Source: Acidimicrobiales bacterium (GTDB lineage: Bacteria; Actinomycetota; Acidimicrobiia; Acidimicrobiales; CADCSY01). From it: 55,920 nucleotides of DNA. A model generated the notes under the pieces. It saw only the letters and a program-made list of their open reading frames with translations, was not told the DNA's origin and did not search any database. Made by a program: the position numbers and the translations under genes. The first letter of the stretch is position 1; the number at the start of each line of letters is the position of its first letter. The DNA is taken from assembly GCA_050742255.1 (NCBI GenBank), contig JBOGHU010000127.1, forward strand, positions 1 through 55,920, given 5' to 3'. This document shows positions 23,939 to 46,236 of the stretch, one piece after another.

Positions 23939-24011
23939 GCCGACCGGGTGACCACCTCGTAGGACCACAGCTCGCTCGACATCGCCACCGGCGCCTGGCC
24001 CGACGGGTGGG
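23939..24011. repeat. left copy of the 73-bp direct repeat (displaced 3' end of the ABM monooxygenase gene; attL-like)
   Basis: Aligns to 45932..46004 at a constant offset of 21993 nt. 69 of 73 positions are identical by manual alignment. On the minus strand it encodes ...HPSGQAPVAMSSELWSYEVVTRSA, versus ...HPSGQAPVAMSSELWSYQVVTRSA in the intact gene. Confidence 0.85.
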
Positions 24012-24352
24012 ACCGAGGCACGGAGAGGCCCCCAAGGGCAGCCAGTGCCGTGACCAGAAACACCTCGCACGGTTTCTCGCTGGCATTGCCACGTCTCCCA
24101 GGCCCATGGCCAGCACCTTTGGCTCGGCAGTCTCCAGTAGGAGAACCGAGAAACGATGCGAGGTGCTCGCAGGCACGGCACCAGATCGACCGGCGCGACG
24201 GAAAACCGTCCTCGGGAACGAGGGACGGCGTGAGCATGACCGGCGATCCTCCCCCGGGACATGACCACAAGGGTCAGCTCTGGGGGAACGAACTGGAGCT
24301 GGGAGCATTCCGTTGCCAATCACCGAGAGAGCCACGAGCTGCTTGGTCGGGG
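24009..24352 (+). repeat. copy 1 of a roughly 205-nt structured leader-like element (interrupted by a 142-nt insertion)
   Basis: Homologous to 32358..32560. Conserved hairpins at 24206..24228 and 24275..24301, each with GGGAACGA in the loop. Lies upstream of the DegT operon. Confidence 0.6.
24041..24182. mobile_element. MITE-like insertion / long imperfect palindrome
   Basis: Present in copy 1 but absent from copy 2 of the leader element. The 37-nt arms 24044..24080 and 24146..24182 are inverted repeats, 27 of 37 matching. Confidence 0.4.
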
Positions 24353-24504
24353 TCATGGCGGCGCTCCTGTGGAGATCCGACTCGCCCAGGGAAGGCTCGT
24401 GGTTCCTCCCCGGACCGCTCGCCACGGGGCCGCCGCTTCCGCTCGGCGGCACCTTCGACCAGCTCCGCCGGCACTGCCTTGGCGCAGGGGAGGGGTGAGC
24501 AGGC

Positions 24505-25734
24505 TTGGCTGTCGAGCTCGACATGGGGCAGCTCCCGTCCGACCAGGCGCGATCCGGACGGACGTTCGGGACCGACGAGATGCGCCTGCTCGAGGAGGTG
24601 CTCGAGAGCGGGGTCCTGACCGCTACCAAGGGCACCAAGGTCCCTCTGCTCGCCGCCTCGTTCGCCGGCCTCCTCGGAGCCCGGTTCGCCTTCGCCTGCT
24701 CATCGGGCACAGCCGCCATCCATGCCGCCGTGGCCGCCGTGGACCCGGAGCCGGGCGAGGAGATCATCACGACACCCATCACCGACATGGGCGCCCTGAC
24801 GCCGATCCTCTACCAGGGCGCCATCCCGGTGTTCGCCGATGTGGACCCGAGGACCGGCAACCTTACGGCCGAGACCATCGCCCAACGCGTCAGCGAACGC
24901 ACCCGGGCCATCGTCGTCACCCACCTGTTCGGGAACCCGTGTGAGATGGGCGACATCATGGCCCTCGCCTCGAGCCTCGGCGTGCCGGTGATCGAGGACT
25001 GCGCCCAGGCGTACCTGGCGACTAGCGCCGGCCGGACCGTGGGCACTATCGGGGCCATCGGTTGCTTCAGCCTGCAGCAGGGCAAGCACATCACCTGTGG
25101 CGAGGGAGGCCTGGTCGTCACCGACGACGAGGCCCTCGCCCGCCGGGTCCGTCTGTTCATCGACAAGGGCTGGGGCTACGGCGAGTCGAACCACGACCAC
25201 GAGTTCCTCGCGCCGAACCACCGGATGTCGGAGCTCCAGGGGGCGGTGGCGCTCGCCCAGCTGGCGAGGCTGGAGGACTCCGTTCGACAGCGGGTGGCGA
25301 TGGCGTCGCGCCTGAGCACAGCGCTGACCGGCCTACCCGGCGTGGAGACCCCCTGGGTGCACCCGGACAACCACCACGTCTACTGGCGTTACGTGTTGCG
25401 GGCCGATCCCGGTGTGGTGCCCGACGGCCCTGCTGGCGTCGCCCGGGAGCTGGCCGCCTTCGATGTCGCCTCGATCCCCCGCTACATCCAGAAGCCGGCG
25501 TTCCGGTGCGCGGTCTTCGCTGAGCAGCGCACCTTCGGGCGCAGCCGGTACCCCTTCACGCTGGCCCGCCCCGATGCGGTCGACTACTCGGACGAGCGGT
25601 TCCCGGGGACGGACACCGCCCTCGCCTGGATGCTCGTCCTCCCCTGGAACGAGCGCTACCAGGCCCACCACGTGGACTACCTCGCCACCGCCATCGCCCG
25701 AGCCGTGTTCCAACTCACCGGAGGCGCACCGTGA
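24505..25734 (+). CDS. DegT/DnrJ/EryC1/StrS-family sugar aminotransferase
   Basis: TTG 24505 after GGGGAGGGG (ATG 24523 is an alternative). SGTAAIHAA, VIEDCAQA, SLQQGKHITCGEGG (PLP-lysine context). Confidence 0.9.
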   Translation: MAVELDMGQLPSDQARSGRTFGTDEMRLLEEVLESGVLTATKGTKVPLLAASFAGLLGARFAFACSSGTAAIHAAVAAVDPEPGEEIITTPITDMGALTPILYQGAIPVFADVDPRTGNLTAETIAQRVSERTRAIVVTHLFGNPCEMGDIMALASSLGVPVIEDCAQAYLATSAGRTVGTIGAIGCFSLQQGKHITCGEGGLVVTDDEALARRVRLFIDKGWGYGESNHDHEFLAPNHRMSELQGAVALAQLARLEDSVRQRVAMASRLSTALTGLPGVETPWVHPDNHHVYWRYVLRADPGVVPDGPAGVARELAAFDVASIPRYIQKPAFRCAVFAEQRTFGRSRYPFTLARPDAVDYSDERFPGTDTALAWMLVLPWNERYQAHHVDYLATAIARAVFQLTGGAP

Positions 25735-26771
25735 AGGAGCCCGTCAGGATCGGCCTCATCGGGGTGGGGGGCATCGCCCAGTCGTACCTCCAGGTCTTCC
25801 GCAACCTGGAGAAGGAGGCCCGCCTCGTCGCCGTCGCCGACGTCCGTGGCGGACAGGCCGACGCCGCTGCCAAGGCCATGGGGTGCCGCGGCTACGACTC
25901 CCATTCCGCCCTCGTGGAAGGTGAGGACGTCGAGGCGGTCCTCATCTGCACGCCGCCTGCGACGCACCCCGAGATCGCCGCCCACTTCCTCGAGCGCGGC
26001 ATCTCCGTGCTGTCGGAGAAGCCGCTCGCCACCGACGTCGGGAGCGCCGAGATGCTCCTCAAGACCGCCGAGAGCAACGGGGTGATCCTGACGATGTCCT
26101 CGAAGTACCGCTACGTCGACGAGGTCGTCAGAGCCAAGAGCATCCTCGCGTCGGGGATCCTCGGCGAGATCATCCTCCTCGAGAACGTCTTCGCCACCCG
26201 CGTCGAGATGTCCCGGCGCTGGAACTCCGATCCGCGCATCAGCGGTGGCGGCGTCCTCGTCGACAACGGCACGCACTCCGTCGACCTCATCCGCTACCTC
26301 CTCGGCCCGATCGCGGAGGTGGCGGCGGTGGAGGGCAAGCGCGTGCAGGGCCTCGCCGTCGAGGACACGGTTCAGCTGTTCGTCAAGACCGCGGATGGCG
26401 TGAGGGGCACCGTGGACCTGTCGTGGAGCATCGACAAGCAGCGCGACCCCTACATCGACATCTACGGGTCGAACGGCACCGTCAGCGTCGGCTGGAAGGT
26501 ATCGAGGTTCCGCCAGGCGGCCAGCCCCGACTGGGTCGTGTTCGGCGGCGCCTACGACAAGATCGGGTGCCTCGGCGCCCAGCTCCAGAACTTCTGCCGG
26601 GCTGTGCGGAACGAGGAGCAGCTCCTCATCACCGCCGAGGACGCCATCGCCTCGATCGAGGTCATCCAGAAGGCCTACGCGTCACTCGCTCGCCCTCGCT
26701 GGGTCCGGGTCGAAGGCGCACACCGCGATGGTGGGCGTGGAGGAGTCCACGCTCGGGCGCGGTCGGCCTGA
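25731..26771 (+). CDS. Gfo/Idh/MocA-family sugar oxidoreductase
   Basis: GTGA overlap with the upstream gene. N-terminal Rossmann fold (IGLIGVGGIAQSY), EKPLA motif. Confidence 0.88.
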   Translation: MKEPVRIGLIGVGGIAQSYLQVFRNLEKEARLVAVADVRGGQADAAAKAMGCRGYDSHSALVEGEDVEAVLICTPPATHPEIAAHFLERGISVLSEKPLATDVGSAEMLLKTAESNGVILTMSSKYRYVDEVVRAKSILASGILGEIILLENVFATRVEMSRRWNSDPRISGGGVLVDNGTHSVDLIRYLLGPIAEVAAVEGKRVQGLAVEDTVQLFVKTADGVRGTVDLSWSIDKQRDPYIDIYGSNGTVSVGWKVSRFRQAASPDWVVFGGAYDKIGCLGAQLQNFCRAVRNEEQLLITAEDAIASIEVIQKAYASLARPRWVRVEGAHRDGGRGGVHARARSA

Positions 26772-27427
26772 TGCACTTCGTGCACGACACCGCCATCGTG
26801 GAGGACGGAGTCGAGATCAGCCCGGGCACCTCCATCTGGGACAACGTGCACATCCGGGCTCCGGCCCGGATCGGATCCGAGTGCATCGTGGGCGAGAAGA
26901 CCTACATCGCCGGCGGTGTGGCCATCGGCAACCGGGTCAAGGTCAACGCCCACGTCTACATCTGCAGCGCGGTGACGATCGAGGACGGGGCCATGATCAG
27001 CGCCGGGACGATCTTCACCAACGACCGGTTCCCCCGGGCGACCGCCCCCGACCTGTCTGCCCTCCGCCCGTGCGAGCCCGTCGAGCACACCCGGCCGACG
27101 CTGGTGAGGGAGGGGGCGACCATCGGTGCGGCCAGCGTCATCGGGTGCGACCTCGTCGTCGGACGCTGGAGCATGGTCGGGATGGGATCGGTGGTCACGA
27201 GCTCGGTCCCGGACTTCCACCTCGTCGTGGGCCAGCCCGCCCGCTCCATCGCCTGCGTGTGCCGGTGCGGCGAGCCCTTCCTTCGCCTCGCCGGGGATCG
27301 CCCGTCGGAACCGAGCCACCTGGCCTGCCCCGCCTGCTCCCGCCGGTACTCCGTGCGGGGCGACGCGGTCACCGAGATCGACCCCGGGCCGGGTCGCACC
27401 TCGGCCGGCGGCGAGGCAACGGGGTGA
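26771..27427 (+). CDS. left-handed beta-helix sugar N-acetyltransferase (WbpD/WlbB-like) with a Cys-rich zinc-ribbon-like tail
   Basis: ATG 26771 overlaps the TGA stop (TGATG). Hexapeptide repeats, TNDRFPRA motif. C-terminal CVCRCG...(19 aa)...CPAC. Confidence 0.85.
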   Translation: MHFVHDTAIVEDGVEISPGTSIWDNVHIRAPARIGSECIVGEKTYIAGGVAIGNRVKVNAHVYICSAVTIEDGAMISAGTIFTNDRFPRATAPDLSALRPCEPVEHTRPTLVREGATIGAASVIGCDLVVGRWSMVGMGSVVTSSVPDFHLVVGQPARSIACVCRCGEPFLRLAGDRPSEPSHLACPACSRRYSVRGDAVTEIDPGPGRTSAGGEATG

Positions 27428-29865
27428 GCGGCGTGCCCGGGACCTCCCGATGGGCCGTAGTCGGCGGCGGCATGCTGGGTCTCACGCTCGCCCATCGCCT
27501 CGCTCGCCACGGCTGCGACGTGACCGTGCTCGAGGGCGCTCCCCGCCTCGGCGGGCTCGCCGGCGCCTGGAGCCTCGACACCGTGGTCTGGGACCGCCAC
27601 TATCACGTCACCCTGCTGTCGGACTCGCACCTCCGGGCTCTCCTGGCCGAGCTGGGGCTGGAGGACACCATGGAGTGGAGGCAGACCCGTGCCGGGGTTT
27701 ACAGCGACGGGCAGCTGCACTCCGTCTCCAACACGGTCGAGCTCCTTCGCCTCCCCGGCCTGGCGCTGGTCGACAAGCTGCGGCTCGGCTTGACCATCTT
27801 CTACGGCTCGAAGGTGCGGGACTGGCGCCGGCTGGAGCGTGTGCCGGTCGAGCGATGGCTCAGGAGGTGGTCGGGGAACCGGACGTTCGAGCGCCTGTGG
27901 TTGCCGTTGCTGCGCGCCAAGCTGGGTGAGAGCTACCGGGAGTCGTGCGCCGCCTTCATGTGGGCCACCATCCAGCGCCTCTACGCGGCGCGGCGAGGGG
28001 GCCTCAAGAAGGAGATGTTCGGCTACGTCCCCGGCGGCTACGCCCGCATCCTCGAGCGGTTCGCCGAAGTCCTCGCCGCTGAAGGCGTACGGCTGGAGCT
28101 CGGATGCCGGGTCTCTCAGATCGCGTCCACCGGAGGCGACGTCGAGGTGACCGTCCCCGATGGTGGCTCCATGAGGTTCGACCATGTCGTCGTCACCGCG
28201 TCCCCCTCTGTGGCCGCCCGGCTGATCGACGGGCTCTGCGCTCGAGAGCGGGCCCGCCTCGAGGCCCTGCGCTACCAAGGGGTCGTCTGCGCCTCGCTCC
28301 TGCTCGAGCGACCTCTGTCGCCGTACTACCTCACGTACATCACCGACGAGACTCCCCTTACCGCGGTGGTGGAGATGTCGGCCTTCGTCGACCGTAGCCA
28401 ATTCGCGGGCAGGTCGCTCGTCTACCTCCCGAAGTACTGTCCCGCCGACGACCCTCTCATGAACGCGTCTGACGACGAGGTGGAAGATCTGTTCCTCGCC
28501 TCGCTCGAGAGGATGTACCCCGAGTTCCACCGAGATGATGTCGCCTGTTTCCGTGTCTCGCGGGTCCGAGAGGTCTTCGCCATACCGACGCTCTCGTACT
28601 CCCAGGGTGTGCCGGGGTTCGACTGCACCGTCCCTGGGGTCCACGTGGTGAACTCCTCCCAGATCATCAACGGCACGCTGAACGTGAACGAGACCGTGCA
28701 GCTGGCGGAGAGGGCGGTCCGGTCCCTCCTCGAGGGGGTCGGCACCCCGGTCCGCCCGGCGCCCGCCCCTCGACCCCCCCCTCGACCCACCCCGGTCGAC
28801 GGGCCGGGAGGGCGGGTGGCCCGCAAGCCGCTGGCCGGCCTGTCGCTCGACCTCGACGACGTGTGGTCCTACATGAAGACCCACGGTGATCCTGGCTGGG
28901 AGGATCTGCCGTCTTACCTGGACGTGGTCGTGCCGAGGGCGCTGGGCTTCCTCCGCCAGCGCCACTTGACGATCACCTGGTTCGTGGTGGGCCAGGACGC
29001 GGCCCTGGAGAGGAACCGCTCCCTGCTCGCCTCGATAGCCGAGGCCGGTCACGAGATCGGCAACCACTCCTTCCTCCACGAGCCGTGGCTGCACCTCTAC
29101 TCGCGAGAGGCGATCGAGGAGGAGCTCGCCAGGGCCGACACGGCCATCGAGGAGGCGACCGGTCGGCGCCCGGACGGCTTCCGAGGACCGGGCTTCAGCC
29201 TCTCTCATGACGTCCTGGCCGTCCTCGGTGAGCGCGGGTTCCGCTACGACGCCTCCACGCTGCCGACCTACACCGGCCCGTTGTCGGGCCTGTTCTTCTC
29301 GAGGACCATGCGAGAGATGGATCCCGAAGACAGGGCCCGGCGCAAGGGTGCGTACGGCTCCTTCCGGGATGGCACGCGTCCGCTGAAGCCGTATCGGTGG
29401 AGGGCCGACGGCTCCTCCCTGCTGGAGCTGCCCGTCACCACCATGCCCATACTCCGTACGCCCATCCACATGACCTACCTGCTGTACATGAGCCAGCTCT
29501 CCCCGAGGCTGGCCAGGGCCTACTTCGGCTCTGCCCTCCGGCTCTGCCGCATCACCGGCGTGGCGCCGTCGATCCTCCTCCACTCCCACGACTTCGCCGG
29601 CTCTGACGACGTCGAGCAGCTGTCGCACTTCCCGGGCATGAGCCTTCCCAGCGACGTCAAGGTGAGGCGGATGGCTGAGCTCCTCGACCAGCTCTCCCGG
29701 TCGTTCCAGGTCGTCCCCATGGGCCGTCTCGCTGACGACGTGGCGTCGTCGGAGGGGCTGCGTCTCATCCAGCCGAGGTTCTTCCACCGGGGGCGCAACG
29801 GGCGGGCGGGGCCTGGGTCCGCTGGGGGACAACGGTCCGCTCTCCCCGTAGGAGGACCGCCATGA
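27424..29865 (+). CDS. fusion protein: FAD/NAD(P)-binding oxidoreductase (amine-oxidase/desaturase-like) plus polysaccharide deacetylase domain
   Basis: GTG 27424 (GTGA overlap). VVGGGMLGLTLAHRLARHGCDVTVLEGAPRLGG dinucleotide fold. Pro-rich linker PAPAPRPPPRPTP. NodB-like half (ITWFVVGQDA...GHEIGNHSFLHE...GFRGPGF...YDAS). Confidence 0.8.
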   Translation: MSGVPGTSRWAVVGGGMLGLTLAHRLARHGCDVTVLEGAPRLGGLAGAWSLDTVVWDRHYHVTLLSDSHLRALLAELGLEDTMEWRQTRAGVYSDGQLHSVSNTVELLRLPGLALVDKLRLGLTIFYGSKVRDWRRLERVPVERWLRRWSGNRTFERLWLPLLRAKLGESYRESCAAFMWATIQRLYAARRGGLKKEMFGYVPGGYARILERFAEVLAAEGVRLELGCRVSQIASTGGDVEVTVPDGGSMRFDHVVVTASPSVAARLIDGLCARERARLEALRYQGVVCASLLLERPLSPYYLTYITDETPLTAVVEMSAFVDRSQFAGRSLVYLPKYCPADDPLMNASDDEVEDLFLASLERMYPEFHRDDVACFRVSRVREVFAIPTLSYSQGVPGFDCTVPGVHVVNSSQIINGTLNVNETVQLAERAVRSLLEGVGTPVRPAPAPRPPPRPTPVDGPGGRVARKPLAGLSLDLDDVWSYMKTHGDPGWEDLPSYLDVVVPRALGFLRQRHLTITWFVVGQDAALERNRSLLASIAEAGHEIGNHSFLHEPWLHLYSREAIEEELARADTAIEEATGRRPDGFRGPGFSLSHDVLAVLGERGFRYDASTLPTYTGPLSGLFFSRTMREMDPEDRARRKGAYGSFRDGTRPLKPYRWRADGSSLLELPVTTMPILRTPIHMTYLLYMSQLSPRLARAYFGSALRLCRITGVAPSILLHSHDFAGSDDVEQLSHFPGMSLPSDVKVRRMAELLDQLSRSFQVVPMGRLADDVASSEGLRLIQPRFFHRGRNGRAGPGSAGGQRSALPVGGPP

Positions 29866-31073
29866 CCAGGGCCAGTGCCGGCCAACCGGGCCCGTTCGCT
29901 CCCGGCGTCGCACCCGGGCCCGGGGACCCACGACCGCAGGCGGACCTGGCACCGGCCCTCGACGGGGGGCGTCCGCTCATCTCGGTGGTCGTGCCCGCCT
30001 ACAACGAGGCTGCCCTCATCACCCAGAGCCTCACCAGCCTGTGCGACTACCTCGCTCGCATCGAGGACATGTACCGGTGGGAGCTGATCGTGGTGAACGA
30101 CGGCAGTACCGACGAGACCGGGGCGCTGGCGGAGGCGTTCGCCTCCGGGCGACCCGACGTCCGGGTCCTCCACCACCACGTCAACTTCCACCTCGGCCAG
30201 GCCCTCCGGTACGCGTTCAGGAACTGCCGCGGCGACTACGTCGTCTCCCTCGACTGCGATCTCAGCTACGCCCCGGAGCACATCGGCCGCCTGGTCAGCG
30301 AGCTGCGGAGCACGAGGGCCAAGATCGTGATCGCTTCCCCCTACCTGCGAGGCGGCAGGATCACCAACGTCCCGTTCCGGCGCCGGGTGTTGAGCAAGGG
30401 GGGCAACCGGTTCCTCTCCATCATGGCCAAGGGAAGGATCTCGACGCTCACCGGGATGGTCCGGGCGTACGACCGTCGCTTCCTGAGCAGCCTCAACCTG
30501 AAGTCCATGGACACCGAGATCAACACCGAGATCCTCTACAAGGCCGAGTTGCTGGGTGCCGTCGTCAAGGAGATCCCGGCCCACCTCGACTGGAGCTTCA
30601 ACGACACGGGCAAGCCCCGGCGCCGGATCGCCGGCTCTCTTCGGAGCAGTGCGAGATCCTACCTCTTCTCGGGATTCATGTTCCGGCCGGTCTTCTTCTT
30701 CATCGTCCCGGGCCTCTTGACCCTGGCCTTGGCCACCTACACGCTCGGATGGGTGTTCTGGAGGGTGACCGACAACTACCTGAACCGGACGTCGGGCGGC
30801 TTCGACCCCCGCCTCTCGGAGGCCGTCCGCCTCTCCTTCGAGTCAGCTCCCCACGCGTTCATCGTGGGCGGGATCGCCCTGCTCGTGGCCTTCCAGCTGA
30901 TCAGCCTCGGTGTCCTCGCACTCCAGAGCGAGCGGTACTTCCATGAGCTGTTCCACTTCAACACGTCCATCTATCGCGAGCTCCGGAGCCCAGGGCGGTC
31001 ATCGACCACGGATGGCAAGAGCCAGGGCGAGCGGGGTGCACACCTCCACCCCGTGGATGCCCAACCCGACTGA
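29862..31073 (+). CDS. family 2 glycosyltransferase, polyprenyl-phosphate sugar synthase type (DPM1/GtrB/ArnC-like) with C-terminal TM helices
   Basis: ATGA overlap with the upstream gene. ISVVVPAYNE, VVNDGSTDET, DCD motif. Two C-terminal hydrophobic helices. Confidence 0.88.
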   Translation: MTRASAGQPGPFAPGVAPGPGDPRPQADLAPALDGGRPLISVVVPAYNEAALITQSLTSLCDYLARIEDMYRWELIVVNDGSTDETGALAEAFASGRPDVRVLHHHVNFHLGQALRYAFRNCRGDYVVSLDCDLSYAPEHIGRLVSELRSTRAKIVIASPYLRGGRITNVPFRRRVLSKGGNRFLSIMAKGRISTLTGMVRAYDRRFLSSLNLKSMDTEINTEILYKAELLGAVVKEIPAHLDWSFNDTGKPRRRIAGSLRSSARSYLFSGFMFRPVFFFIVPGLLTLALATYTLGWVFWRVTDNYLNRTSGGFDPRLSEAVRLSFESAPHAFIVGGIALLVAFQLISLGVLALQSERYFHELFHFNTSIYRELRSPGRSSTTDGKSQGERGAHLHPVDAQPD

Positions 31074-31193
31074 CTCGATGAGACGCCGGGGGTTACAGTG
31101 GCCCCGCCCGCACCCGGCCCGGGCCGAGACCCGAAGGAGCCGCTCATGGCTGGAAGCGCCTGCCCCGGCGCGTGCCGCCCTCGTGCAGGCGGC

Positions 31194-32339: not shown

Positions 32340-32357
32340 AGCGAGCGGCGACCTGGG

Positions 32358-32560
32358 GGGACCGAGGCACGGACAGGCCCCGAGGGCACGAAGATCGACC
32401 GGCGCGACGGAAAGGCGTCCTCGGGAACGACGGACGACGTGAGTCTGACCGACGGGCCTGCCCGGGGTCCTGGCCACAGGGCCAGCTCCGGCGGGAACGA
32501 GATGGAGCTGGAGCGGTTCCATGCCTTCTGCCGAGCGAGCCACGAGCGGGCTGGCGGGGG
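32358..32560 (+). repeat. copy 2 of the structured leader-like element
   Basis: Hairpins at 32416..32436 and 32482..32511 with GGGAACGA loops. Ends 20 nt upstream of wecB. Confidence 0.6.
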
Positions 32561-34897: not shown

Positions 34898-34915
34898 TCG
34901 AGGGGGGAGGTCCGC

Positions 34916-37357: not shown

Positions 37358-37405
37358 AGTGGCGGGCCGGGCCCGGAGGGGCGGGGACGCGACCGGGAGG
37401 CAGGC

Positions 37406-38104: not shown

Positions 38105-39471
38105 TGGGGTTGACCGATCGCGTGGAGGCGTTCTCCGACCGGACGGCGATGGTTCACCGGGACGTGGCCCACTCCTACGCCCGGCTGGCGCGACGGGCGC
38201 GTGAGTGGTCTGCCCTGCTCGCCGACCGGGGCATCCCGGAGGGGTCCACCGTCTCGGTGACCGGCGACTTCGATCCCGAGACGGTTGCCGCGTTGATGGC
38301 CCTGATCGATCACCGCTGCATGGTCGTGCCCCTGCTGTCTGGCCCCAGGCCTGGCCGGGTGGAGGCGCTCGAGACGGCTCAGGTCCAGTGGGAGCTCGAT
38401 CTCATGGCGCAGCAGCCCTCGATCAGTCGCACCGGCCGGACGGTCGACCACGAGCTGCTCCTCGCCCTCCGTCGCAGTGCCCATGCGGGGATCGTCCTGT
38501 ACTCCTCCGGCTCCGCTGGGACGACCAAGGCGGTCCTCCACGACTGCGACCGTCTCCTCCGCCGGTTCGACCGGCCGTCCCGAGCCCTGCGGACGCTGGC
38601 GTTCCTGCTGTTCGACCACATCGGAGGGCTCAACACCCTGCTCCACACGCTTCTCAACGGCGGCTGCCTGGTCGTCGTCTCCGAGCGTTCCCCGGACCAT
38701 GTGTGTGCCGCAGTGGAGCGACACCGCGTCACGCTGCTGCCGACATCCCCGACCTTTCTCAACCAGCTGATCCTGTCGGAGGCCGCCCACCGCCACGACC
38801 TCAGCTCGCTCACCCTGATCACGTACGGAACCGAGGTCATGCCCGAGGTGACTCTCCGGAGGATGGAGGCCCTGTTGCCCTGGGTCCGCCTCAAGCAGAC
38901 CTACGGGCTCTCCGAGGTCGGCATCCTCCCCTCCCTCTCCCCCTCGTCCACGTCCACCCGGCTGCAGCTGGGAGGCAGGGATGGCTACGAGACCCGGGTC
39001 GTCGATGGGCTGCTCGAGGTCCGGGCTCCGTCGGCGATGCTCGGATACCTCAACGCCCCCAGCCCCTTCACCCCCGACGGCTGGTTCCGCACGGGCGACG
39101 CGGTCCAGGTCGAGGGTGAATCCCTGCGCGTGCTCGGGAGGAGGTCGGAGATGATCAACGTCGGTGGAGAGAAGGTGTTCCCCGCCGAGATCGAGAGCGT
39201 GATCATCGGGATGGACGGCGTGGAGGACGTGACGGTCTCCGGCGAGCCGAACGCCCTCGTGGGCCAGATCGTGGCCGCACGGGTGAAGCTGTCCCCGACC
39301 GAACCTGCCGACGGCTTCAGGAACCGCCTGCGCCACTTCTGCAAGGGCAAGCTGGAGCCCTTCAAGGTGCCGCAACGCATCGAGCTCGTCGACCACCCTC
39401 TGCACGGCGCCCGGTACAAGAAGCTCCGAAGCGAGGGGGAACGAACGACACGCCCCGAGGTTGCCGTCTGA
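38101..39471 (+). CDS. AMP-dependent synthetase/ligase (acyl-CoA or acyl-ACP ligase)
   Basis: GTGA overlap with the upstream gene. YSSGSAGTTKAV AMP-binding core, YGTEV, GDAV...GRRSEMINVGGEKV. Confidence 0.88.
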   Translation: MMGLTDRVEAFSDRTAMVHRDVAHSYARLARRAREWSALLADRGIPEGSTVSVTGDFDPETVAALMALIDHRCMVVPLLSGPRPGRVEALETAQVQWELDLMAQQPSISRTGRTVDHELLLALRRSAHAGIVLYSSGSAGTTKAVLHDCDRLLRRFDRPSRALRTLAFLLFDHIGGLNTLLHTLLNGGCLVVVSERSPDHVCAAVERHRVTLLPTSPTFLNQLILSEAAHRHDLSSLTLITYGTEVMPEVTLRRMEALLPWVRLKQTYGLSEVGILPSLSPSSTSTRLQLGGRDGYETRVVDGLLEVRAPSAMLGYLNAPSPFTPDGWFRTGDAVQVEGESLRVLGRRSEMINVGGEKVFPAEIESVIIGMDGVEDVTVSGEPNALVGQIVAARVKLSPTEPADGFRNRLRHFCKGKLEPFKVPQRIELVDHPLHGARYKKLRSEGERTTRPEVAV

Positions 39472-39718
39472 TGGGCACCCGGCACCAACCACCGTGAACC
39501 AGGAGGGAGCCCGTGTAGGTGGCCGGGGCGGGCCTGGCGGGCTCCGGCCCACCACCGTCACCCGGCCACCCGAGCCGGCCCTGCCCTCTGCCGGCGCTGA
39601 TCCGCCGGCTGTGTCCCACCCGCTGCCTGACATGCCCCCACCCCGAGCCGGCGGTCGATCGTCCGCGCCCGATGTCGGACGCAGTCGCCGGGGCCGTGGA
39701 GGCAGGGGAGGCGCAACC

Positions 39719-41056
39719 TTGATCAGTGCCGTGCTCACCGGCCGACCTGCGCCTGGCAGGCGGCTGCCCGAGGGGGCCCTGTCGGTGGGTGGCGGCTTCG
39801 TCGTCTCCGGCCTGACCGTCTACGGGTTCTTGGTCCTCTCCGCCCGCGCCGTGGGACCCGAGCAATACGTCGCCATATCGGTGCTGTACTCCCTGGTGTC
39901 GATCGTGGCGTTCGGCTGCTTCCTCCCGCTGGAGCAGGAGGTCAGTCGGATCCTGTCGGCCCGCGCCACCCTGGGCATCGGCGGAGGCGCGCTCGTCCGC
40001 CGGGCCGTCCTGGCGTCCGGGATGCTGTCCGCGGTGCTGCTCGGGGCCGCCTTCGTCGGGGCCGGGCCGCTGCTCGACCACGCCTTCGACCGCCAGCCTG
40101 TCCTCCTGGCAGCGTTCGCCATCTCGCTGGTGAGCTACGGTCCGGCCCACCTCACCCGCGGCGTCCTGCTGGGAAATCGCCGGTTCCGCGCCTACGGCCT
40201 GTTCCTGAGTGGTGAAGGCATCCTGCGGTTCATGGCGTGCGGCGCCCTCTTGGCCCTCGGCGTCCGCACATCTGGCCCCTTCGGCCTGTTGATCGGGCTG
40301 CCGCCGCTGCTCGCCGTGGCCATGGTCCTGTTCCGGGAGCGGGGCCTGATCACACCTGGACCGGACACGCCCTTGAGGGAGCTGTTCGGCGCTCTCGGCT
40401 TCCTGTTCGCGGGGTCCATGCTCTCTCAGCTGCTCCTCCACGCCGCACCGGTGGCGGTGAAGTTGCTGGCGGACGACAGCCAGCAGAGGATCGCCGGTCA
40501 GTTCCTGGCCGGACTGGTCGTGGCCAGGGTCCCGATCTTCCTCTTCCAGGCCGTGCTGGCCGCGCTCCTGCTCAAGCTGGCGTCCCTGGCCGCCGCCGGG
40601 CGTCACCGCGACTTCTCCCTGGGGCTCCGGCGAGTCGTGCTCCTCGTCGTGGCCCTCGGCGGAGCGGCTAGCATCGCCGGGCTCCTCGTTGGTCCCGAGG
40701 TCATGCGGATCCTCTTCGGCGCCGAGTTCTCGCTCGACCGGCTCGACCTGGTCTTCCTCATCGTCGCCAGCGCCGCATTCATGGTGGCCCACACGTTGGG
40801 CCAGGCGCTGATCGCCCTCTCCGGCCATGCCCGGGTCACCGTCGGGTGGCTGCTCGGGGTGGTGGCGTTCGTGGTCGTCACCTGGGCCGTCTCCGACCTG
40901 CTGCTCCGGGTCGAGCTGGGGCTGCTGGCCGGTTCTGCGACCGGGGCGGCGGCGATGGCGATCCTGCTGCGGGGCGTCACGCGAGCGGTGCCTCGTGCGG
41001 GCGTTCCGGGGCAGGTGACGTCTCCGTGCCCATCGGCCCCTGGCGTGCGCCCCTGA
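39719..41056 (+). CDS. polysaccharide/oligosaccharide flippase (MOP/Wzx family)
   Basis: TTG 39719 after GGAGGCAGGGGAGG (start uncertain; the ORF opens at 39461). About 12 hydrophobic helices in a Wzx-like pattern. Confidence 0.7.
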   Translation: MISAVLTGRPAPGRRLPEGALSVGGGFVVSGLTVYGFLVLSARAVGPEQYVAISVLYSLVSIVAFGCFLPLEQEVSRILSARATLGIGGGALVRRAVLASGMLSAVLLGAAFVGAGPLLDHAFDRQPVLLAAFAISLVSYGPAHLTRGVLLGNRRFRAYGLFLSGEGILRFMACGALLALGVRTSGPFGLLIGLPPLLAVAMVLFRERGLITPGPDTPLRELFGALGFLFAGSMLSQLLLHAAPVAVKLLADDSQQRIAGQFLAGLVVARVPIFLFQAVLAALLLKLASLAAAGRHRDFSLGLRRVVLLVVALGGAASIAGLLVGPEVMRILFGAEFSLDRLDLVFLIVASAAFMVAHTLGQALIALSGHARVTVGWLLGVVAFVVVTWAVSDLLLRVELGLLAGSATGAAAMAILLRGVTRAVPRAGVPGQVTSPCPSAPGVRP

Positions 41057-41149: not shown

Positions 41150-41250
41150 CGGCCGGGGTGCCGGGAGAAGGCGGTTGGCGACATGGGGTCGCTCAAGGAA
41201 GGCACGAGGCCGGGCCAGCCGCGATCCGGACCACGCCTGCCACGGGCGAC

Positions 41251-41340
41251 GGCGACGGAATTCTCGCTCTGGCAGCGACTCGATAATGATGACCTCCACG
41301 CCGCCACGCGATCGGGCCGAGGCCGGCTCCCTCCTCGAGG
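41251..41340 (+). promoter_or_regulatory. promoter-like repeat, copy B (GATAAT at 41282..41287)
   Basis: See copy A. Overlaps the first ATG codons (41286, 41289) of the long synthase ORF. Confidence 0.45.
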
Positions 41341-44108
41341 CGATCCGCAGGCGGACGGGCCCTGCCACCAGGACGGTGCTGCGGCTGCTTCCGTGGACCA
41401 ACTCCAGCGCGCCCGGGCGCCAACGCGAGGGGGTGGCGGCGCCAGTCAGCCCGGACCGGAAGGCGTCGCCTCCGAGGGGGGGGTCCGGACGGCTCAGACC
41501 GAACCAGGAGACGCTTGGCATCGCGGCCGTGGTCGTCGCGGTGGCGCTCGGCTATCGCCATTCGCTGGGCAGCCTGCTCGGGTGGGTGGAGGGGATCGAA
41601 CCCTACCCTCACCTCGCTCTGGTGCCCCTCGCCGGCCTCGTGCTGTTCGTCTCCCGTGCCCCCACTCCCGCCGACGAGACGCCGATCTACGACCGCCAGC
41701 TCGACTACATCGTCGGGACGCCCCTCCTCGTCGGTGCCATCGTCGCCATGGCGTTCTTTCCCGCCGACGCCGGCCTGAGGGAGTGGGGCCTCGACCTGTT
41801 GACCCTTCCGCTGTTCGCAGCGGGTGCCGTGGGGATCGTGCTGGGGGTCCGCGCCCTGTGGCGCCTCGCTCCCACGCTGGGGTTCTGGTGCCTCGCCTGG
41901 CCGCCGCTCTACGAGCTGTTGGCGACGATGGTCTCGTCTGCCGCCACGGCGTCGACCGGCCTCGTGTACGGGGTGCTGTCGGCCGTCCTGCCGTGGGATC
42001 GACCCGGCATCGATCTCGACTCCCTCACCGGCACCGGCTTCGGCGGTGTCGAGCTCGATGTGCCGGTCGCTCTCGTGGTGGTCGGTGTGGCCCTGGCCGT
42101 CGGCTCCTGCAGGAGGCCCTCCCGGTGGCTCCTCGGGGTGGCCGCCAGCCTCGGCGTCGCCTGCCTCGCGAGCCTCCTGGTGGTCACGACATCCTCCCTG
42201 CTCATCGGCGCCGCCGGCGAGGAGGCGCTCGGCGGCCCGCTCGACGCCCTCATCGGGCTCCTGGCGCTAGCCGGTGCGCTGTCCCTGATGTGGTGGACGT
42301 GGCGCTCAGGGCGGGCCCTCGCCGAAGCCCACGACCCCGGTGAGGCCGGTGTCGGTTCGCCCCGTCCCGTCCCCCACCCGTCCCTGGCCGCCGGCTTGAT
42401 CCTCGCCGCCGCGCTGGCGGTGGCCATGGCGGCGCCTGCCTCAGGGACCGGGCCCCTCGACCTCGCCGGAGGCTCCCCGGCCACGGAGGGCTTCTCCCCC
42501 GAGACCGGGGTCGCCCAGTCGGCGGGACCGACGCTTCCGCGGGCGCCCGTCCCCTGGGACATCGTGGCGGCGCTGGTCGCCCTGGGGGCGTTGGCGGTGG
42601 TGCGCTTCACCGTCGCCGACCTCCGCCAGCCCGGGCGCAAGCGGAGGGCGAGAGGGAACGGGCCCTCGCTGCCGGCGCTGCCGCCGGATGTCGAGGACCT
42701 CCCCGAGCTGCCAGCCCATCTGAGCGCCAGGCAGACCTTCAGCCCCGGGACGGTGCGGGTGTTCGTGGTGGTCGGGATCAGCTTCGCCCTGCTCCTCGTG
42801 GGCGCCCAGCGCGCCACCATGATCGGGCTGGCGGGTCTGTCGACGGTGCTCTACGTGCTGACCGTGGGATACCGGGTCCTGATCTTCCGCCAATCGGTCA
42901 GGCAACCCACCCTGGTAACGATCACCGACGACCACGCCCGCTCCATCCCCGACGGTGAGCTGCCTCTCTACACCGTCCTCATCGCCGCCTACAAGGAGCC
43001 CGAGGTCATCGGCCACCTCATCACCGCCGTCGACGCCCTCGAGTACCCGCGCTCACGCCTCGAGGTCAAGCTGTTGCTCGAGGCGGACGACGAGGAGACC
43101 ATCGCCGCCGCGGTGGCCGCCCGCCCGGGGCCGCACATCGAGATCGTGGCCGTCCCGGTGTCGGACCCGAGGACCAAGCCCAAGGCGCTCAACTACGGCC
43201 TACGCCGGTCGCGTGGCGAGCTGCTCACGATCTTCGACGCCGAGGACCTCCCCGAGCCCCTCCAGTTGCGCAAGGCGGCGGTGGCCTTCTCGCTGGCGCC
43301 CGATTCGCTCGCCTGCCTCCAGGCGAAGCTGGCCTATCACAACTCCTCGCAGAACATCATCACGAGGTGGTTCACGGCCGAGTACGCGTCATGGTTCTCG
43401 TGGTTCCTCCCCGGGCTGCTGGCCATGGGGGCGCCGCTTCCGCTCGGCGGCACCTCCAACCACTTCCGCCGCTCCGTCCTCGAGGAGGTTGGGGCGTGGG
43501 ACTCCTACAACGTGACCGAGGACGCCGACCTCGGCATCCGCCTCCAGAGGAGCGGCTGGAAGTGCGCCATCCTCGACTCCGTCACCCTCGAGGAAGCGAA
43601 CAGCGACTTCGTCAACTGGTCCCGGCAGCGGTCCCGGTGGCTCAAGGGCTACATGCAGACCTGGCTGGTCCACTCCCGGCACCCTCGCCAGCTGTACCGA
43701 GATCTCGGACCGAGGGGGTTCCTGGGGTTCCACCTGTTCGTGGGCGGCACTCCGATCCTCTCCCTGGTCAACCCGGTCTTCTGGGCCCTGACCCTCGTGT
43801 GGATGACCGGTCAGCCGGAGTTCATCCAGGACATGTTCCCGCTGGCGCTCTACTACACCGCGTTCGCGTGCTGGGCCCTCGGAAACTTCAGCATCGTCTA
43901 CATCAACCTGATCGCTGTCCGCACCAACGGGATCCCGGAGCTGGCCCTGGCTGCCCTGCTGGAGCCCGTCTACTGGATCATGATCTCGATGGCCGGTGTG
44001 AAGGCCGTCGTGCAGCTCGTGTCCCGTCCGAGCTTCTGGGAGAAGACCGAGCACGGTCTCATCCGCAAGGACGAGCCCGCTCCCCGGTCCGAGCTGGCCG
44101 GGGCATGA
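41286..44108 (+). CDS. fusion protein: exosortase/archaeosortase-like polytopic N-domain plus processive family 2 glycosyltransferase (synthase)
   Basis: GT2 half: YTVLIAAYKE, DAED, TEDADLG, and the processive-synthase motif SRQRSRWLKG (Q-x-x-R-W) followed by TM helices. N-half (about 41.5-42.4 kb): 8-9 TM helices opening GYRHSLGSLLGWVEGIEPYPHLALVPL, like exosortase N-termini. The true start may be downstream of 41286. Confidence 0.75.
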   Translation: MMTSTPPRDRAEAGSLLEAIRRRTGPATRTVLRLLPWTNSSAPGRQREGVAAPVSPDRKASPPRGGSGRLRPNQETLGIAAVVVAVALGYRHSLGSLLGWVEGIEPYPHLALVPLAGLVLFVSRAPTPADETPIYDRQLDYIVGTPLLVGAIVAMAFFPADAGLREWGLDLLTLPLFAAGAVGIVLGVRALWRLAPTLGFWCLAWPPLYELLATMVSSAATASTGLVYGVLSAVLPWDRPGIDLDSLTGTGFGGVELDVPVALVVVGVALAVGSCRRPSRWLLGVAASLGVACLASLLVVTTSSLLIGAAGEEALGGPLDALIGLLALAGALSLMWWTWRSGRALAEAHDPGEAGVGSPRPVPHPSLAAGLILAAALAVAMAAPASGTGPLDLAGGSPATEGFSPETGVAQSAGPTLPRAPVPWDIVAALVALGALAVVRFTVADLRQPGRKRRARGNGPSLPALPPDVEDLPELPAHLSARQTFSPGTVRVFVVVGISFALLLVGAQRATMIGLAGLSTVLYVLTVGYRVLIFRQSVRQPTLVTITDDHARSIPDGELPLYTVLIAAYKEPEVIGHLITAVDALEYPRSRLEVKLLLEADDEETIAAAVAARPGPHIEIVAVPVSDPRTKPKALNYGLRRSRGELLTIFDAEDLPEPLQLRKAAVAFSLAPDSLACLQAKLAYHNSSQNIITRWFTAEYASWFSWFLPGLLAMGAPLPLGGTSNHFRRSVLEEVGAWDSYNVTEDADLGIRLQRSGWKCAILDSVTLEEANSDFVNWSRQRSRWLKGYMQTWLVHSRHPRQLYRDLGPRGFLGFHLFVGGTPILSLVNPVFWALTLVWMTGQPEFIQDMFPLALYYTAFACWALGNFSIVYINLIAVRTNGIPELALAALLEPVYWIMISMAGVKAVVQLVSRPSFWEKTEHGLIRKDEPAPRSELAGA

Positions 44109-44144
44109 TGGCAGGGCCTGCCAACGGACGTCCGGGGGGCGGCG

Positions 44145-45893
44145 GTGTCGGCTGACGCAGCCGCGTTCGACGCCATCGGGGTCACCAGCGCGGGCCACAC
44201 CCTGGTCCGGCGCCATCGCCTGGCCGGTGTCACCGGAGCGATCAAGGGCACCACGGCCGTGTTCCTGGTGGCGCTCGGTGCCTACCTGACCATCGCCGCG
44301 GTGCTGGTGTTCGTGCTCAACGTCTTCGCCGCCGACGCGCTGGCGCGGGTCGGCCTGGCGAGCAACGTCCTGTACAGCCGCAACGCCCGCCTCGAGTCGC
44401 TCGGCTTCGTCTGGGGGCCGATCCCCCAGGTCCTCATCGTCCCGCTGCTCGCCCTCAAGCCGCTGTGGCCGGCGCTGGCCGACCATGGCTTCGCCAGCAA
44501 CATCGTCTCCGCGCTGTTCATGGCGGGCGCCGTCGCCCAGGTGTACGCCTTCCTGGGCGACCTCGGGATCCGGCACCGGGTACGGGTGACCCTCACGGTG
44601 GTCTTCGCCATCCACCCCATGATCGTCTTCTACGGGTCCAACGGCATGTCCGAGGCCCCGTACCTCTTCTTCCTGGTCACCGCCGCTCGGCACCTGACGA
44701 GGTGGCTCCGGGACCACCAGGCGACAGAGCTCATGGCGGTGGGCATCGCCCTGGCCCTCGGGTACCTGGCCCGTTACGAGGCTGCTCCCTGTGCCGCCGT
44801 GGTCGCCGTCCTCGTGGCGGTGCTCAGCTTCCGTCACGCCGGCGGCGACCTCAGATCGCGGATCGCCACGGTCAGGGCCGACCTGGTGATCTTCGCCGCT
44901 CCCGTCGCCATGGCGGTGGTCGGGTTCGCGCTGATCAGCCTGGTGACGGTGGGCTCGCTCTCGGAGCAGCTCTTCTCCGAGTACGGCGCCACGGCCTTTC
45001 GGGCTCGCCTTGCCGCCGTCGGCATCTCGCCATCCATCCCGCTGCTCGTCCAGCAGGTGCTGGCGCTGGTGCCCCTGCTCCCGCTGATCGCTCTCGCTGC
45101 GCTGGCCAGCGGGGCGTTGCGCCGGGACGTGCGGGTGTTGGGCCCGCTCACGGTGCTGGGCATCGGCGTGGTGGTGTCGATCGGCGCCAGCCTCGTCAGC
45201 AATCCCTTCCAGCTCATGCGGTACTACATCGTGGCGGTCCCGCTCGGGGTGCTGCTGGCCGGCAACCTCATCAGCGGTCGTCCGGGGATGACCCTCGAGG
45301 GGAGCGACGACACCTCCACCGAGACGGAGGGGACGATCCGTCCTGGCCGTGCCCACCGAGTGCTACGAGTGGCGGCGTCCCCCCTCCTGGTCGTTCCCGT
45401 CCTGGTCGTTCCCGCCCTGGTGGCCTCCGGCGTGGCGATGAGCACGGCACCGCATGGAGTTCAGGAGCTCCACATCAAGGCGGCGATCGAGACCAAGCTC
45501 TTGGGTTCGACCGACGACTCCGTGGCCGCCTCGATGGTCGGCCGCCTTCACACCGAGCGGGAGGTGGCCGCCTTCCTCGACCGCCTCGACCTCCCTGAAG
45601 GCTCGGTGCTGGTCGACACCGGGGCCGGGTTCCCTGTCGTCATGGCCTCGAAGCGGCCCAAGCAGTTCGTGATCCCGTCCGACCTAGACTTCAAGGCGGC
45701 GCTGGCCGACCCGAGGGGCTTCGGGATCAGGTACATCCTCGCCTTCCAGGATCTGGGCCAGGGTCTGCACGACGCGGTGGCGGAGAGGTATCCGGACCTG
45801 TACGAGCGTGGGACCGGGTGGGCGACCTTGCTGGGGGACTTCGACAACCGAGGCGACTTCGGCGACGTGCGCATCTACCAGGTGGGCGGCTGA
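44145..45893 (+). CDS. GT-C fold membrane glycosyltransferase (ArnT/PMT-like) with C-terminal soluble domain
   Basis: GTG 44145. More than 10 TM helices, loop motifs of polyprenyl-phosphate-sugar-dependent transferases, roughly 130-aa extracytoplasmic tail. Family-level call only. Confidence 0.65.
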   Translation: MSADAAAFDAIGVTSAGHTLVRRHRLAGVTGAIKGTTAVFLVALGAYLTIAAVLVFVLNVFAADALARVGLASNVLYSRNARLESLGFVWGPIPQVLIVPLLALKPLWPALADHGFASNIVSALFMAGAVAQVYAFLGDLGIRHRVRVTLTVVFAIHPMIVFYGSNGMSEAPYLFFLVTAARHLTRWLRDHQATELMAVGIALALGYLARYEAAPCAAVVAVLVAVLSFRHAGGDLRSRIATVRADLVIFAAPVAMAVVGFALISLVTVGSLSEQLFSEYGATAFRARLAAVGISPSIPLLVQQVLALVPLLPLIALAALASGALRRDVRVLGPLTVLGIGVVVSIGASLVSNPFQLMRYYIVAVPLGVLLAGNLISGRPGMTLEGSDDTSTETEGTIRPGRAHRVLRVAASPLLVVPVLVVPALVASGVAMSTAPHGVQELHIKAAIETKLLGSTDDSVAASMVGRLHTEREVAAFLDRLDLPEGSVLVDTGAGFPVVMASKRPKQFVIPSDLDFKAALADPRGFGIRYILAFQDLGQGLHDAVAERYPDLYERGTGWATLLGDFDNRGDFGDVRIYQVGG

Positions 45894-45909
45894 GGTCCTG
45901 GGCAGCGTC

Positions 45910-46236
45910 TCACCTCTGGCTGCCGGGTGGAGCCGACCGGGTGACCACCTGGTATGACCACAGCTCGCTCGACATGGCCACCGGCGCCTGGCCCGAGGGG
46001 TGGGCCCGGTGCTGGTCGGCGAAGGCGGGCGAGCTCATCCACGCCTGGAAGGACTCCTCGTCCCGCCAGTGGGTGACCACCAGCCAGGTGGTGCGGTCGT
46101 CGTTGGGGCGAAGCAGCTCGAAGCCCTCGAAGCCCTCCTGGCGGTCGACCTCGCCGGCCCGGGCGGAGAAGCGCCGGGCCAGCTCGTCCCCGTGCTCGGC
46201 GTCGACGGTGATGGCGTTGATCTTGACCACGGACAT
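45910..46236 (-). CDS. antibiotic-biosynthesis-monooxygenase (ABM) domain protein (IsdG/MhuD-like)
   Basis: ATG 46236. MSVVKINAITVDAEHGDELARRFSARAGEVDRQEGFEGFELLRP...WLVVTHWRDEESFQAWMSS is a typical ABM ferredoxin-like fold. Confidence 0.85.
   Translation of the reverse strand: MSVVKINAITVDAEHGDELARRFSARAGEVDRQEGFEGFELLRPNDDRTTWLVVTHWRDEESFQAWMSSPAFADQHRAHPSGQAPVAMSSELWSYQVVTRSAPPGSQR
45932..46004. repeat. right copy of the 73-bp direct repeat (within the intact ABM gene; attR-like)
   Basis: See 23939..24011. Confidence 0.85.

Follow-up and report, generated by a model that had tools for sequence, protein, structure and literature searches.

How does a gene cluster of some 22 kb come to lie between an intact gene and a second copy of that gene's own 3′ end? 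The question is raised by contig JBOGHU010000127.1 of an Acidimicrobiales bacterium (GTDB lineage CADCSY01, assembly GCA_050742255.1), all 55,920 nucleotides of which were analysed and are referred to here as the 55.9-kb window. In this window, a polysaccharide-biosynthesis cluster is bracketed by direct repeats that correspond to the end of an ABM monooxygenase gene. We consider it probable that the cluster is an acquired insertion in which the 3′ end of the ABM gene was replaced. The features on which this reading turns are the following.

23185 to 23907, plus strand: DUF169 gene (PF02596), the last gene of the left block radical SAM - ATP-grasp - NifU - DUF169
23926 to 24011, minus strand: orphan ABM 3′ fragment, the left repeat copy; 27 sense codons (HPSGQ...TRSAPAG) and a TGA stop
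24009 to 24504, plus strand: non-coding patchwork left end of 494 nt, the leader of the DegT operon
45910 to 46236, minus strand: intact ABM gene of the IsdG/MhuD type, 108 aa (PF03992, E = 3e-21, 75.6 bits against a cutoff of 23.1)
46274 to 48328, minus strand: right conserved block, a hypothetical 257-aa gene (hyp257) and a DUF2201/VWA gene

The two repeat copies, 23939-24011 and 45932-46004, align without gaps and are identical at 69 of 73 positions. Their homology continues to the stop codons, over about 83 nt, and a blastn comparison gave a match of 23911-24015 to 45906-46008 with E = 2e-25. Within the window, this repeat pair is the only one of its kind. A first-pass annotation, made from the sequence alone, had described the gap-free duplication with the same count and had taken the left copy for an orphan and the right copy for part of an intact gene. 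Both descriptions hold, with 27 codons and a stop on the left and a 108-aa open reading frame on the right. The orphan translates as HPSGQAPVAMSSELWSYEVVTRSAPAG, followed by its stop codon at 23926-23928; 18 nt separate this codon from the stop of the DUF169 gene at 23905-23907. Upstream of the orphan no trace of ABM residues 1-76 was found, and the fragment breaks off abruptly at residue 77. The right copy comprises codons 79-105 of the ABM gene (45922-46004). Here, 16 nt lie between the ABM stop codon and that of the last island gene, which encodes an ArnT/PMT_2-like glycosyltransferase (PMT). Beyond both stop codons, the sequences at the two copies are unrelated. At the opposite edge, homology ends abruptly at 24011/24012, where a GGG (24009-24011) can be attributed either to ABM or to the leader. 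The left junction was also found on three independent same-species contigs, one from an NCBI metagenome-assembled genome (MAG) and two from Logan assemblies, and the MAG contig has the right junction as well, in each case with at least 99.9% identity. Because independent same-species contigs carry the junctions, an assembly artefact is excluded.

The presence of an ABM domain in a protein of about 100 aa places the gene, by prediction, among the IsdG/MhuD-type heme-degrading monooxygenases. Homologues are named HmoA or mycobilin-producing heme oxygenase by their sources, and the NCBIfam heme oxygenase models score 39-43 bits against the protein, under their cutoffs of 115-130.

The interval between the repeats differs in composition from the DNA next to it. 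Island genes have a GC content of 0.700, compared to 0.741 for all flank genes and 0.753 for the proximal flanks, and their GC content at third codon positions (GC3) is 0.893 compared to 0.953 in the proximal flanks (Mann-Whitney p = 1.2e-5). A GC profile in 1-kb steps goes down at 24 kb and up at 46 kb. For tetranucleotide frequencies, the correlation is 0.985 between the two island halves and 0.91-0.95 between the island and the adjacent flanks. The steps in composition fall at the repeats on either side, which speaks for an insertion: the repeat lies exactly at both ends of a compositionally distinct block and runs through the stop codon.

To place the interval among its relatives, we scanned the best 80 GTDB genome loci for ABM, the best 80 metagenome loci for DUF169 and 7 hyp257 loci. 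Exact look-ups of ABM and DUF169, together with 90% clusters of six flank and island proteins, yielded same-species contigs only (at least 99.9% identity), and all of these carry the island. The 90% clusters are single-species, with one member for ABM and two contigs each for DegT and PMT. Among the best 80 GTDB genome loci for ABM, the top identity was 71% and no neighbour was in common with the window; the nearest ABM homologues (81-84% identity) lie in another context, DUF6458 / ABM-hyp-hyp-MoxR-DUF58-VWA. On the left side, the radical SAM/ATP-grasp/NifU/DUF169 block is kept in most of the best 80 metagenome DUF169 loci (60-78% identity). ABM or the island gene cluster was beside DUF169 in 0 of these 80, of which 44 reach at least 1 kb and 20 at least 5 kb downstream, and tblastn found no window genes downstream of DUF169 in metagenome loci L096 and L088. 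On the right side, relatives with hyp257 homologues of 57-63% identity keep MoxR-DUF2201-hyp257, followed by hydrogenase-maturation or methyltransferase genes and never by ABM. Across 80 DUF169, 89 ABM and 7 hyp257 loci, DUF169, ABM and hyp257 were never mutual neighbours and the island was beside none of them. Relatives with the same gene order and no repeat, the outcome that the first-pass annotation had named as contradicting it, were not found in these loci either. By these comparisons, the island and the position of ABM are specific to this lineage, and the interval lies at a synteny break. The island proteins are also far more isolated than the flank proteins as judged by best-match identity, which is 41% for PMT versus 68-84% for DUF169, ABM, hyp257 and DUF2201. 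A donor search with PMT gave no match beside ABM.

The left block shows a variation of its own. In most of the metagenome loci L085-L164, DUF169 is convergent with NifU (DUF169+ NifU- ATP-grasp+ radical-SAM+), and in the window and in L088, L095, L096 and L129 it follows NifU in the same direction. Since the orientation of DUF169 differs among loci, the DUF169 end of the conserved block is prone to rearrangement.

Several differences between the copies bear on which of the two ABM ends is native and which imported. Of the 27 aligned sense codons, seven differ, five synonymously and two nonsynonymously, and the orphan has a stop where the intact gene runs on for three more codons. All seven differing codons are G/C-ending, and in this host-like, in the orphan. 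In the intact gene, the differing codons include TCA, GCT and CCA; no other sense codon among its last 28 ends in A/T, and its first 80 codons contain one that does (three versus one, Fisher p = 0.053). A/T-ending codons make up 8.5-9.3% of the island and 3-6% of the flanks, and the last 28 codons of ABM are island-like in this respect. The orphan reads SYE, as does every close homologue, and the intact gene SYQ. Over the central conserved 49 nt, the orphan is 90-92% and the intact copy 88% identical to relatives. The stretches HPSG and VVTRSAP.G are common to both copies and absent from the nearest relatives, so both copies stem from one narrow lineage; the imported end probably had its source inside a narrow clade, or else evolved together with that clade.

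A yardstick for divergence in place is available within the window. A 28-codon relic of the island's processive gene of glycosyltransferase family 2 (GT2) lies at 24396-24479 (motif SWFLPG..PLPLGGT), inside the DegT leader. Compared to 43397-43480, it is 88% identical in nucleotides and 68% in amino acids, with 3 synonymous and 9 nonsynonymous differences, and it is the decaying remnant of an internal duplication, 400 nt from the orphan. Set against the 5 and 2 of the ABM repeat (Fisher p = 0.07), the relic resembles neutral decay, and the ABM pair has the look of alleles that were both functional as they diverged, not of decay in place. Each of these points is weak singly, but together they fit a displaced native end. 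We infer that the orphan is this native end and that the end of the intact gene, at least its last 15 codons, arrived with the island as a replacement. The first-pass annotation had proposed the same polarity, and the host-like codons and the SYE of the orphan, as well as the A/T-ending codons of the intact end, agree with it.

A sequence of events that would account for these observations is as follows. The 22-kb interval (24012-45909) would be a horizontally acquired polysaccharide-biosynthesis island that entered by recombination within the final ~83 nt of the resident ABM gene, with the incoming DNA bearing its own copy of the ABM 3′ end. The body of the gene would have been joined to the imported end, ...SYQVVTRSAPPGSQR and stop, and so kept intact, while the native end, ...SYEVVTRSAPAG and stop, would have been pushed 22 kb away to become a dead fragment beside DUF169. 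The most likely topology would be a single crossover of the Campbell type, in which a circular form of the island recombined with the chromosome inside the common ABM segment, and the catalyst could have been a tyrosine recombinase that is encoded elsewhere in the genome or has since been lost. Whether integrase-mediated or, less efficiently, RecA-mediated, a crossover of the circular form would give hybrid repeats at both ends. The present state would then resemble a cis-mobilizable element (CIME), with att-like repeats kept and integration genes absent. That the island was joined by such a site-specific or Campbell-type route is a tentative proposal, in which we have less confidence than in the insertion itself. 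The first-pass annotation had read the locus as site-specific integration into the 3′ end of a gene. Its insertion footprint and displaced end stand; site-specific integration is one of at least two mechanisms, and neither an integrase nor reuse of the site was found.

What the island carries bears on all of these readings. Between the repeats, 16 genes fill 24505-45893, all on the plus strand and all glycan-related or unassigned in Pfam/NCBIfam scans, in accordance with the glycan machinery in a single orientation that had been noted before. They are arranged in four transcription units of the same orientation, whose leaders include two duplicated pairs, and the non-coding gaps are 494, 240, ~280 and 229 nt.

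24505 to 32339, plus strand: transcription unit 1
24505 to 25734, plus strand: DegT-type aminotransferase, unit 1 (Pfam/NCBIfam, MAG gene calls)
25731 to 26771, plus strand: GFO-family enzyme, best NCBIfam match UDP-GlcNAc 3-dehydrogenase, unit 1
26771 to 27427, plus strand: hexapeptide acetyltransferase, unit 1
27424 to 29865, plus strand: fusion of amine oxidase and polysaccharide deacetylase, unit 1
29862 to 31073, plus strand: GT2, unit 1
31146 to 32339, plus strand: GH5-like hypothetical protein, unit 1
32355 to 32559, plus strand: type-A leader, copy 2, upstream of the WecB operon
32580 to 36788, plus strand: transcription unit 2
32580 to 33788, plus strand: WecB UDP-GlcNAc 2-epimerase, unit 2 (TIGR00236, 475 bits, above cutoff)
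33785 to 34897 and 34916 to 35707, plus strand: two hexapeptide acyl/acetyltransferases, unit 2 (Pfam)
35778 to 36788, plus strand: lipase-like alpha/beta hydrolase, unit 2 (Pfam)
36870 to 37007, plus strand: type-B leader, copy 1, with the core CGGCGACGGAATTCT.GCTCTGGC..CGACTCGATAAT
37067 to 41056, plus strand: transcription unit 3
37067 to 37357, plus strand: 96-aa open reading frame resembling an acyl carrier protein (ACP), by its DSLG motif only and with no Pfam match, unit 3
37406 to 38104, plus strand: FabG-like short-chain dehydrogenase/reductase (SDR), unit 3
38104 to 39471, plus strand: AMP-forming acyl ligase, unit 3
39785 to 41056, plus strand: hypothetical protein, unit 3
41247 to 41378, plus strand: type-B leader, copy 2, upstream of the synthase gene, whose start it overlaps
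41286 to 45893, plus strand: transcription unit 4
41286 to 44108, plus strand: 940-aa protein, exosortase-like membrane domain fused to a processive GT2, unit 4
44145 to 45893, plus strand: ArnT/PMT_2-like GT-C glycosyltransferase (PMT), unit 4

The exosortase-like match is weak (22.6 bits versus a Pfam gathering score of 25.7), and the NCBIfam matches are far under their equivalog cutoffs, except for WecB and the PRK07233-type oxidase domain. Judged from these assignments, the GFO dehydrogenase, the DegT aminotransferase and an acetyltransferase might produce an N-acetylated UDP-sugar of the 2,3-diamino type, and WecB might supply a ManNAc epimer. The ACP-like protein, the FabG-like SDR and the AMP ligase would add an acyl decoration, and polymerisation and export would be carried out by the exosortase-like/GT2 synthase and the ArnT-like GT-C enzyme. 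The island resembles the Wbp-type UDP-2,3-diacetamido sugar pathway plus WecB in its GFO-type 3-dehydrogenase, DegT aminotransferase, hexapeptide N-acetyltransferase and WecB 2-epimerase; it differs from that pathway in having no 6-dehydrogenase (WbpA). In its processive GT2 with an exosortase-like domain, it resembles synthase-dependent exopolysaccharide clusters with an XrtG/XrtP-associated GT2.

An exosortase-like polytopic domain, a processive GT2 and an ArnT/PMT_2-like GT-C enzyme form a recurring set. In the window (41286-45893) the first two are fused, and the same set occurs as separate genes on a JGI metagenome contig and in Nocardia yamanashiensis (L174 8322-11713; L175 5073-11710). 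PMT homologues are also present in Rhodococcus, Mycolicibacterium and Tsukamurella. The set may represent an uncharacterised actinobacterial envelope-glycan synthase system.

The repeated non-coding elements that the first-pass annotation had noticed inside the interval turned out to be two types of leader, each present twice. A type-A leader of ~210 nt lies upstream of the DegT and WecB operons (24006-24040 plus 24177-24352 versus 32355-32559, 79-89% identity); the sequence GGGACCGAGGCACGG opens it at the left junction and recurs at 32358. The type-B copies are 74% identical over 140 nt and serve the ACP/SDR and synthase operons. The DegT leader is interrupted by a 136-nt insertion (24041-24176) that is absent from the paralogous WecB leader. 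Together, ~290 of the 494 nt of the left end are explained by paralogy within the island. A resemblance to the junction at 32346-32372 had been taken by the first-pass annotation for a weak hint of two tandem modules. This hint of a third junction fails, as the site is the duplicate of the DegT leader upstream of the WecB operon. A third att copy at 32340-32357 was likewise rejected, as 19% of random 30-mers drawn from the window resemble ABM equally well or better. The internal repeats are therefore duplicated regulatory regions of four transcription units and give no evidence for two tandemly integrated modules.

The leaders have structural features of their own. The 136-nt insertion, a single copy in the window, folds as a long imperfect hairpin (-59 kcal/mol, z = -3.6) and could be an element resembling a miniature inverted-repeat transposable element, or a bidirectional terminator or insulator. 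A conserved hairpin, CGTCCTCGGGAACGAGGGACG, lies in the shared part of the type-A leader (24177-24290 and 32385-32498); it has no Rfam match and may be a common regulatory site of the two operons. The DegT copy of this leader folds with unusual stability (z = -3.5), the WecB copy does not (z = -0.5). Rfam and tRNA scans of the window returned nothing, and sigma-70 promoter and terminator scans of the junctions and leaders were uninformative.

A number of observations weigh against the acquisition of the island by integration at ABM. No integrase, excisionase, relaxase, transposase, phage or conjugation gene was found by Pfam/NCBIfam scans anywhere in the 55.9-kb window, which extends what the first-pass annotation had reported for integrase, excisionase and transposase genes, and a six-frame translation of the 494-nt left end gave no Pfam match and no recombinase remnant. 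In elements that integrate at the 3′ ends of genes, int normally adjoins the reconstituted target gene; the 16-nt gap between PMT and ABM is too short for a deleted int or a conventional P arm. All of the 22 kb forms a single coherent biosynthetic cluster, and backbone genes are absent from it. Neither an empty site, that is DUF169 followed by a full ABM gene, nor a circular junction was found in any assembly examined. In 89 ABM loci of other taxa, no further ABM 3′ fragment was found within 10 kb; islands of more than 10 kb at ABM would escape a search with flanks of this size. IMG/VR contains neither ABM relatives nor an exact match to the conserved 20-mer, blastn of the repeat found nothing in the phage (INPHARED) or plasmid (PLSDB) collections, and our literature search found no paper on ABM genes as attB. 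Regarding composition, the difference between interval and flanks expected by the first-pass annotation is present in GC, GC3 and tetranucleotides. The distal left flank (1-13 kb), though, is also lower in GC (0.72) and island-like in its tetranucleotides (0.976), so composition along the contig is heterogeneous, and a GC content under that of the genome is frequent in polysaccharide loci even where no recent transfer took place. Finally, the polarity statistics are weak, with p about 0.05-0.07 on 7-12 codons.

These points leave room for another way of inserting the same DNA, namely homology-facilitated illegitimate recombination (HFIR), a one-ended homologous recombination. In a related strain, the glycan cluster would already have been next to ABM; linear DNA from this strain would have been anchored by homology in ABM and possibly hyp257, and its DegT-leader end would have been joined illegitimately inside the recipient ABM gene, 83 nt before the stop. 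The last 27 codons of the recipient would have been left behind and the donor allele would have completed the gene, the repeats being a by-product and not att sites. We regard this course as possible, if rather doubtful. It explains the total absence of mobility genes, as neither a recombinase nor a circular form is needed, and the 16-nt spacing between PMT and ABM is natural if the two were neighbours in the donor. The allele-like, mostly synonymous divergence of the copies fits as well; the patchwork left end, with its GT2 fragment, hairpin insertion and duplicated leader, would record other illegitimate events, and the GGG at 24009-24011 is a possible microhomology. A microhomology of 3 nt is, however, uninformative in DNA of 72% GC. 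A donor with PMT beside ABM is required and none was found; if such a donor also had DUF169 on the other side, an ordinary two-sided replacement without duplication would be expected. Moreover, the host-like GC3 of ABM codons 1-80 requires a crossover just upstream of the repeat or an equally biased donor ABM. To our knowledge, competence or an equivalent is not known for Acidimicrobiales, which counts further against this course. Compared to ordinary homologous recombination, HFIR is less frequent by orders of magnitude, and it has been documented chiefly in bacteria that are naturally transformable (PMC5361080). In its favour, it has been put forward as the model for orphaned 3′ ends and immunity genes at Rhs, contact-dependent inhibition (CDI) and type VI secretion system (T6SS) loci (PMC5361080).

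Our data do not separate a crossover of a circular form from HFIR, and a direct repeat of a gene end alone cannot tell site-specific integration from a homology-anchored illegitimate insertion. Repeats of this kind arise more commonly by crossover of a circular form, a route that also accounts for the position of the island at ABM. On its own, the island is not mobile at present. A stronger version, in which the 83-nt ABM segments are functional att sites of a recombinase-free glycan cassette that is cut out, made circular and reinserted in trans by an integrase from another locus, or lost and regained by RecA across the repeats, seems unlikely. If it were true, the cassette would give Acidimicrobiales populations a swappable on/off surface polysaccharide, and would be the first such element described in the class and the first with the end of an IsdG/MhuD-type gene as its attachment site.

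An origin without any insertion is improbable. The cluster would then be an old resident, a local duplication with deletions or a decayed ABM paralogue would have left the 83-nt fragment, and the low GC would be a mere property of polysaccharide loci. Duplication and deletion have occurred here, as the left end holds internal duplications (the leader and the GT2 fragment); GC is heterogeneous elsewhere on the contig, and the searches made found no donor, empty site or mobility gene. Against this origin, no upstream ABM codons are left beyond the abrupt stop of the orphan at residue 77, and the unrelated sequence past both stops would require several precisely placed deletions. The copies differ mostly synonymously, opposite to the GT2 relic, which did arise by duplication in place. 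It is the intact copy, not the orphan, that has the atypical A/T-ending codons and the non-consensus Q, and the steps in composition fall at the repeats on both sides.

It is decidedly improbable that the island is the remnant of a larger integrative element, such as a prophage or an actinomycete integrative and conjugative element (AICE), whose integrase and transfer module were deleted between the orphan and DegT. The att-like repeat architecture fits this idea and the 494-nt non-coding patchwork could be the deletion scar, but int would be expected beside the reconstituted gene, where there are only 16 nt. No recombinase, phage or conjugation similarity was found in any frame of the scar or in the island, and the paralogy described above already accounts for ~290 of the 494 nt. 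Decay of larger elements to a CIME is nonetheless a described route (PMC5704250).

The island does not class as a prophage, integrative and conjugative element (ICE) or AICE, as no structural, replication, relaxase, FtsK/TraB-like or type IV secretion system gene was found and the coding density leaves no room for one, nor as a transposon or composite of insertion sequences, as there is no transposase and the repeat is direct, 73-83 nt long and derived from coding sequence.

The island belongs to a known broad kind, the genomic island with duplication of a target-gene end. Like an integrative element, it has direct repeats that include the 3′ end of the target gene, a reconstituted gene and a change of composition at the repeats. 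It has no recombinase or recombinase remnant of its own, and no related elements were found at the same site; because of these two points, we did not file it as an integrative element. One of the closest parallels is the integration of e14 and phage 21 in icd of E. coli, where prophages integrate at the 3′ end of a protein gene and bring a replacement end. There, a diverged copy of the target end completes the gene, the native end is orphaned at the far junction, and the differences are largely silent. ABM, probably completed by an incoming end and with its probable native end orphaned at the far junction, shares this layout. The icd prophages encode their own integrase and excisionase beside the att site, whereas the island has no recombinase or phage gene and a purely biosynthetic cargo.

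CIMEs keep attL and attR and lack genes for integration and transfer (PMC5704250), a description that applies to the island only if its repeats are att sites. They are known by a cognate ICE or integrative and mobilizable element of the same att specificity, and usually contain remnants; no cognate element was found in the collections searched, and no remnant in the window. At Rhs, CDI and T6SS loci, too, an incoming allele replaces the 3′ part of a gene and the old part is orphaned downstream without a recombinase. The modules there are toxin/immunity modules of 1-3 kb directly after a long conserved 5′ region (PMC5361080), whereas here the gene measures 327 nt, the duplication is limited to its last 83 nt, and the copies are separated by 22 kb of unrelated genes. 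The islands at ssrA (tmRNA) of Dehalococcoides are alike in carrying metabolic cargo at the 3′ end of a single-copy gene, with direct repeats and in an uncultured or slow-growing lineage; they differ in that the site is reused by many islands and mobilisation is backed comparatively, the present island being a single instance without comparative support (PMC3146451).

Further irregularities were noted in the flanks. Between the DUF2201 and the GNAT/ATP-grasp genes, 48358-48690 contains GC-rich tandem and dispersed repeats (a 71-nt unit three times and a 44-nt unit twice). At this site, relatives L176, L179 and L180 carry the MoxR ATPase partner of DUF2201, and MoxR is absent from the window. 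This absence, together with the repeats in the usual place of the gene, suggests a second rearrangement scar near the island. A 63-nt direct repeat (53123-53185 versus 53214-53276, 97% identical, 91 nt apart) is intergenic, with genes for a 290-aa hypothetical protein and an M24 peptidase on either side. In the left flank, a 42-nt repeat (90% identical, 10849-10890 and 13198-13239) brackets a pair of ABC-2 transporter genes and could be a common operator/promoter or the ends of a small inserted cassette. A queA-like gene (S-adenosylmethionine:tRNA ribosyltransferase-isomerase, 13977-15050, plus strand) has an in-frame TAG at 14478-14480, and its Pfam Queuosine_synth match is split across the two resulting open reading frames; it could be a pseudogene or reflect a sequencing error.

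In practical terms, the junction pair can be used for PCR or read mapping, with modest value, and the 16 genes are flagged as probable accessory genes for pangenome and binning work. The unusual exosortase-like/GT2 fusion beside an ArnT-like GT-C enzyme may merit study of its own. If the interval is an insertion, the DUF169/ABM/hyp257 junction would be marked as a variable site worth watching in new genomes, and the locus would be a clean case of a high-GC, uncultured member of the Acidimicrobiales gaining a complete surface-glycan pathway while its target gene remained undisrupted.

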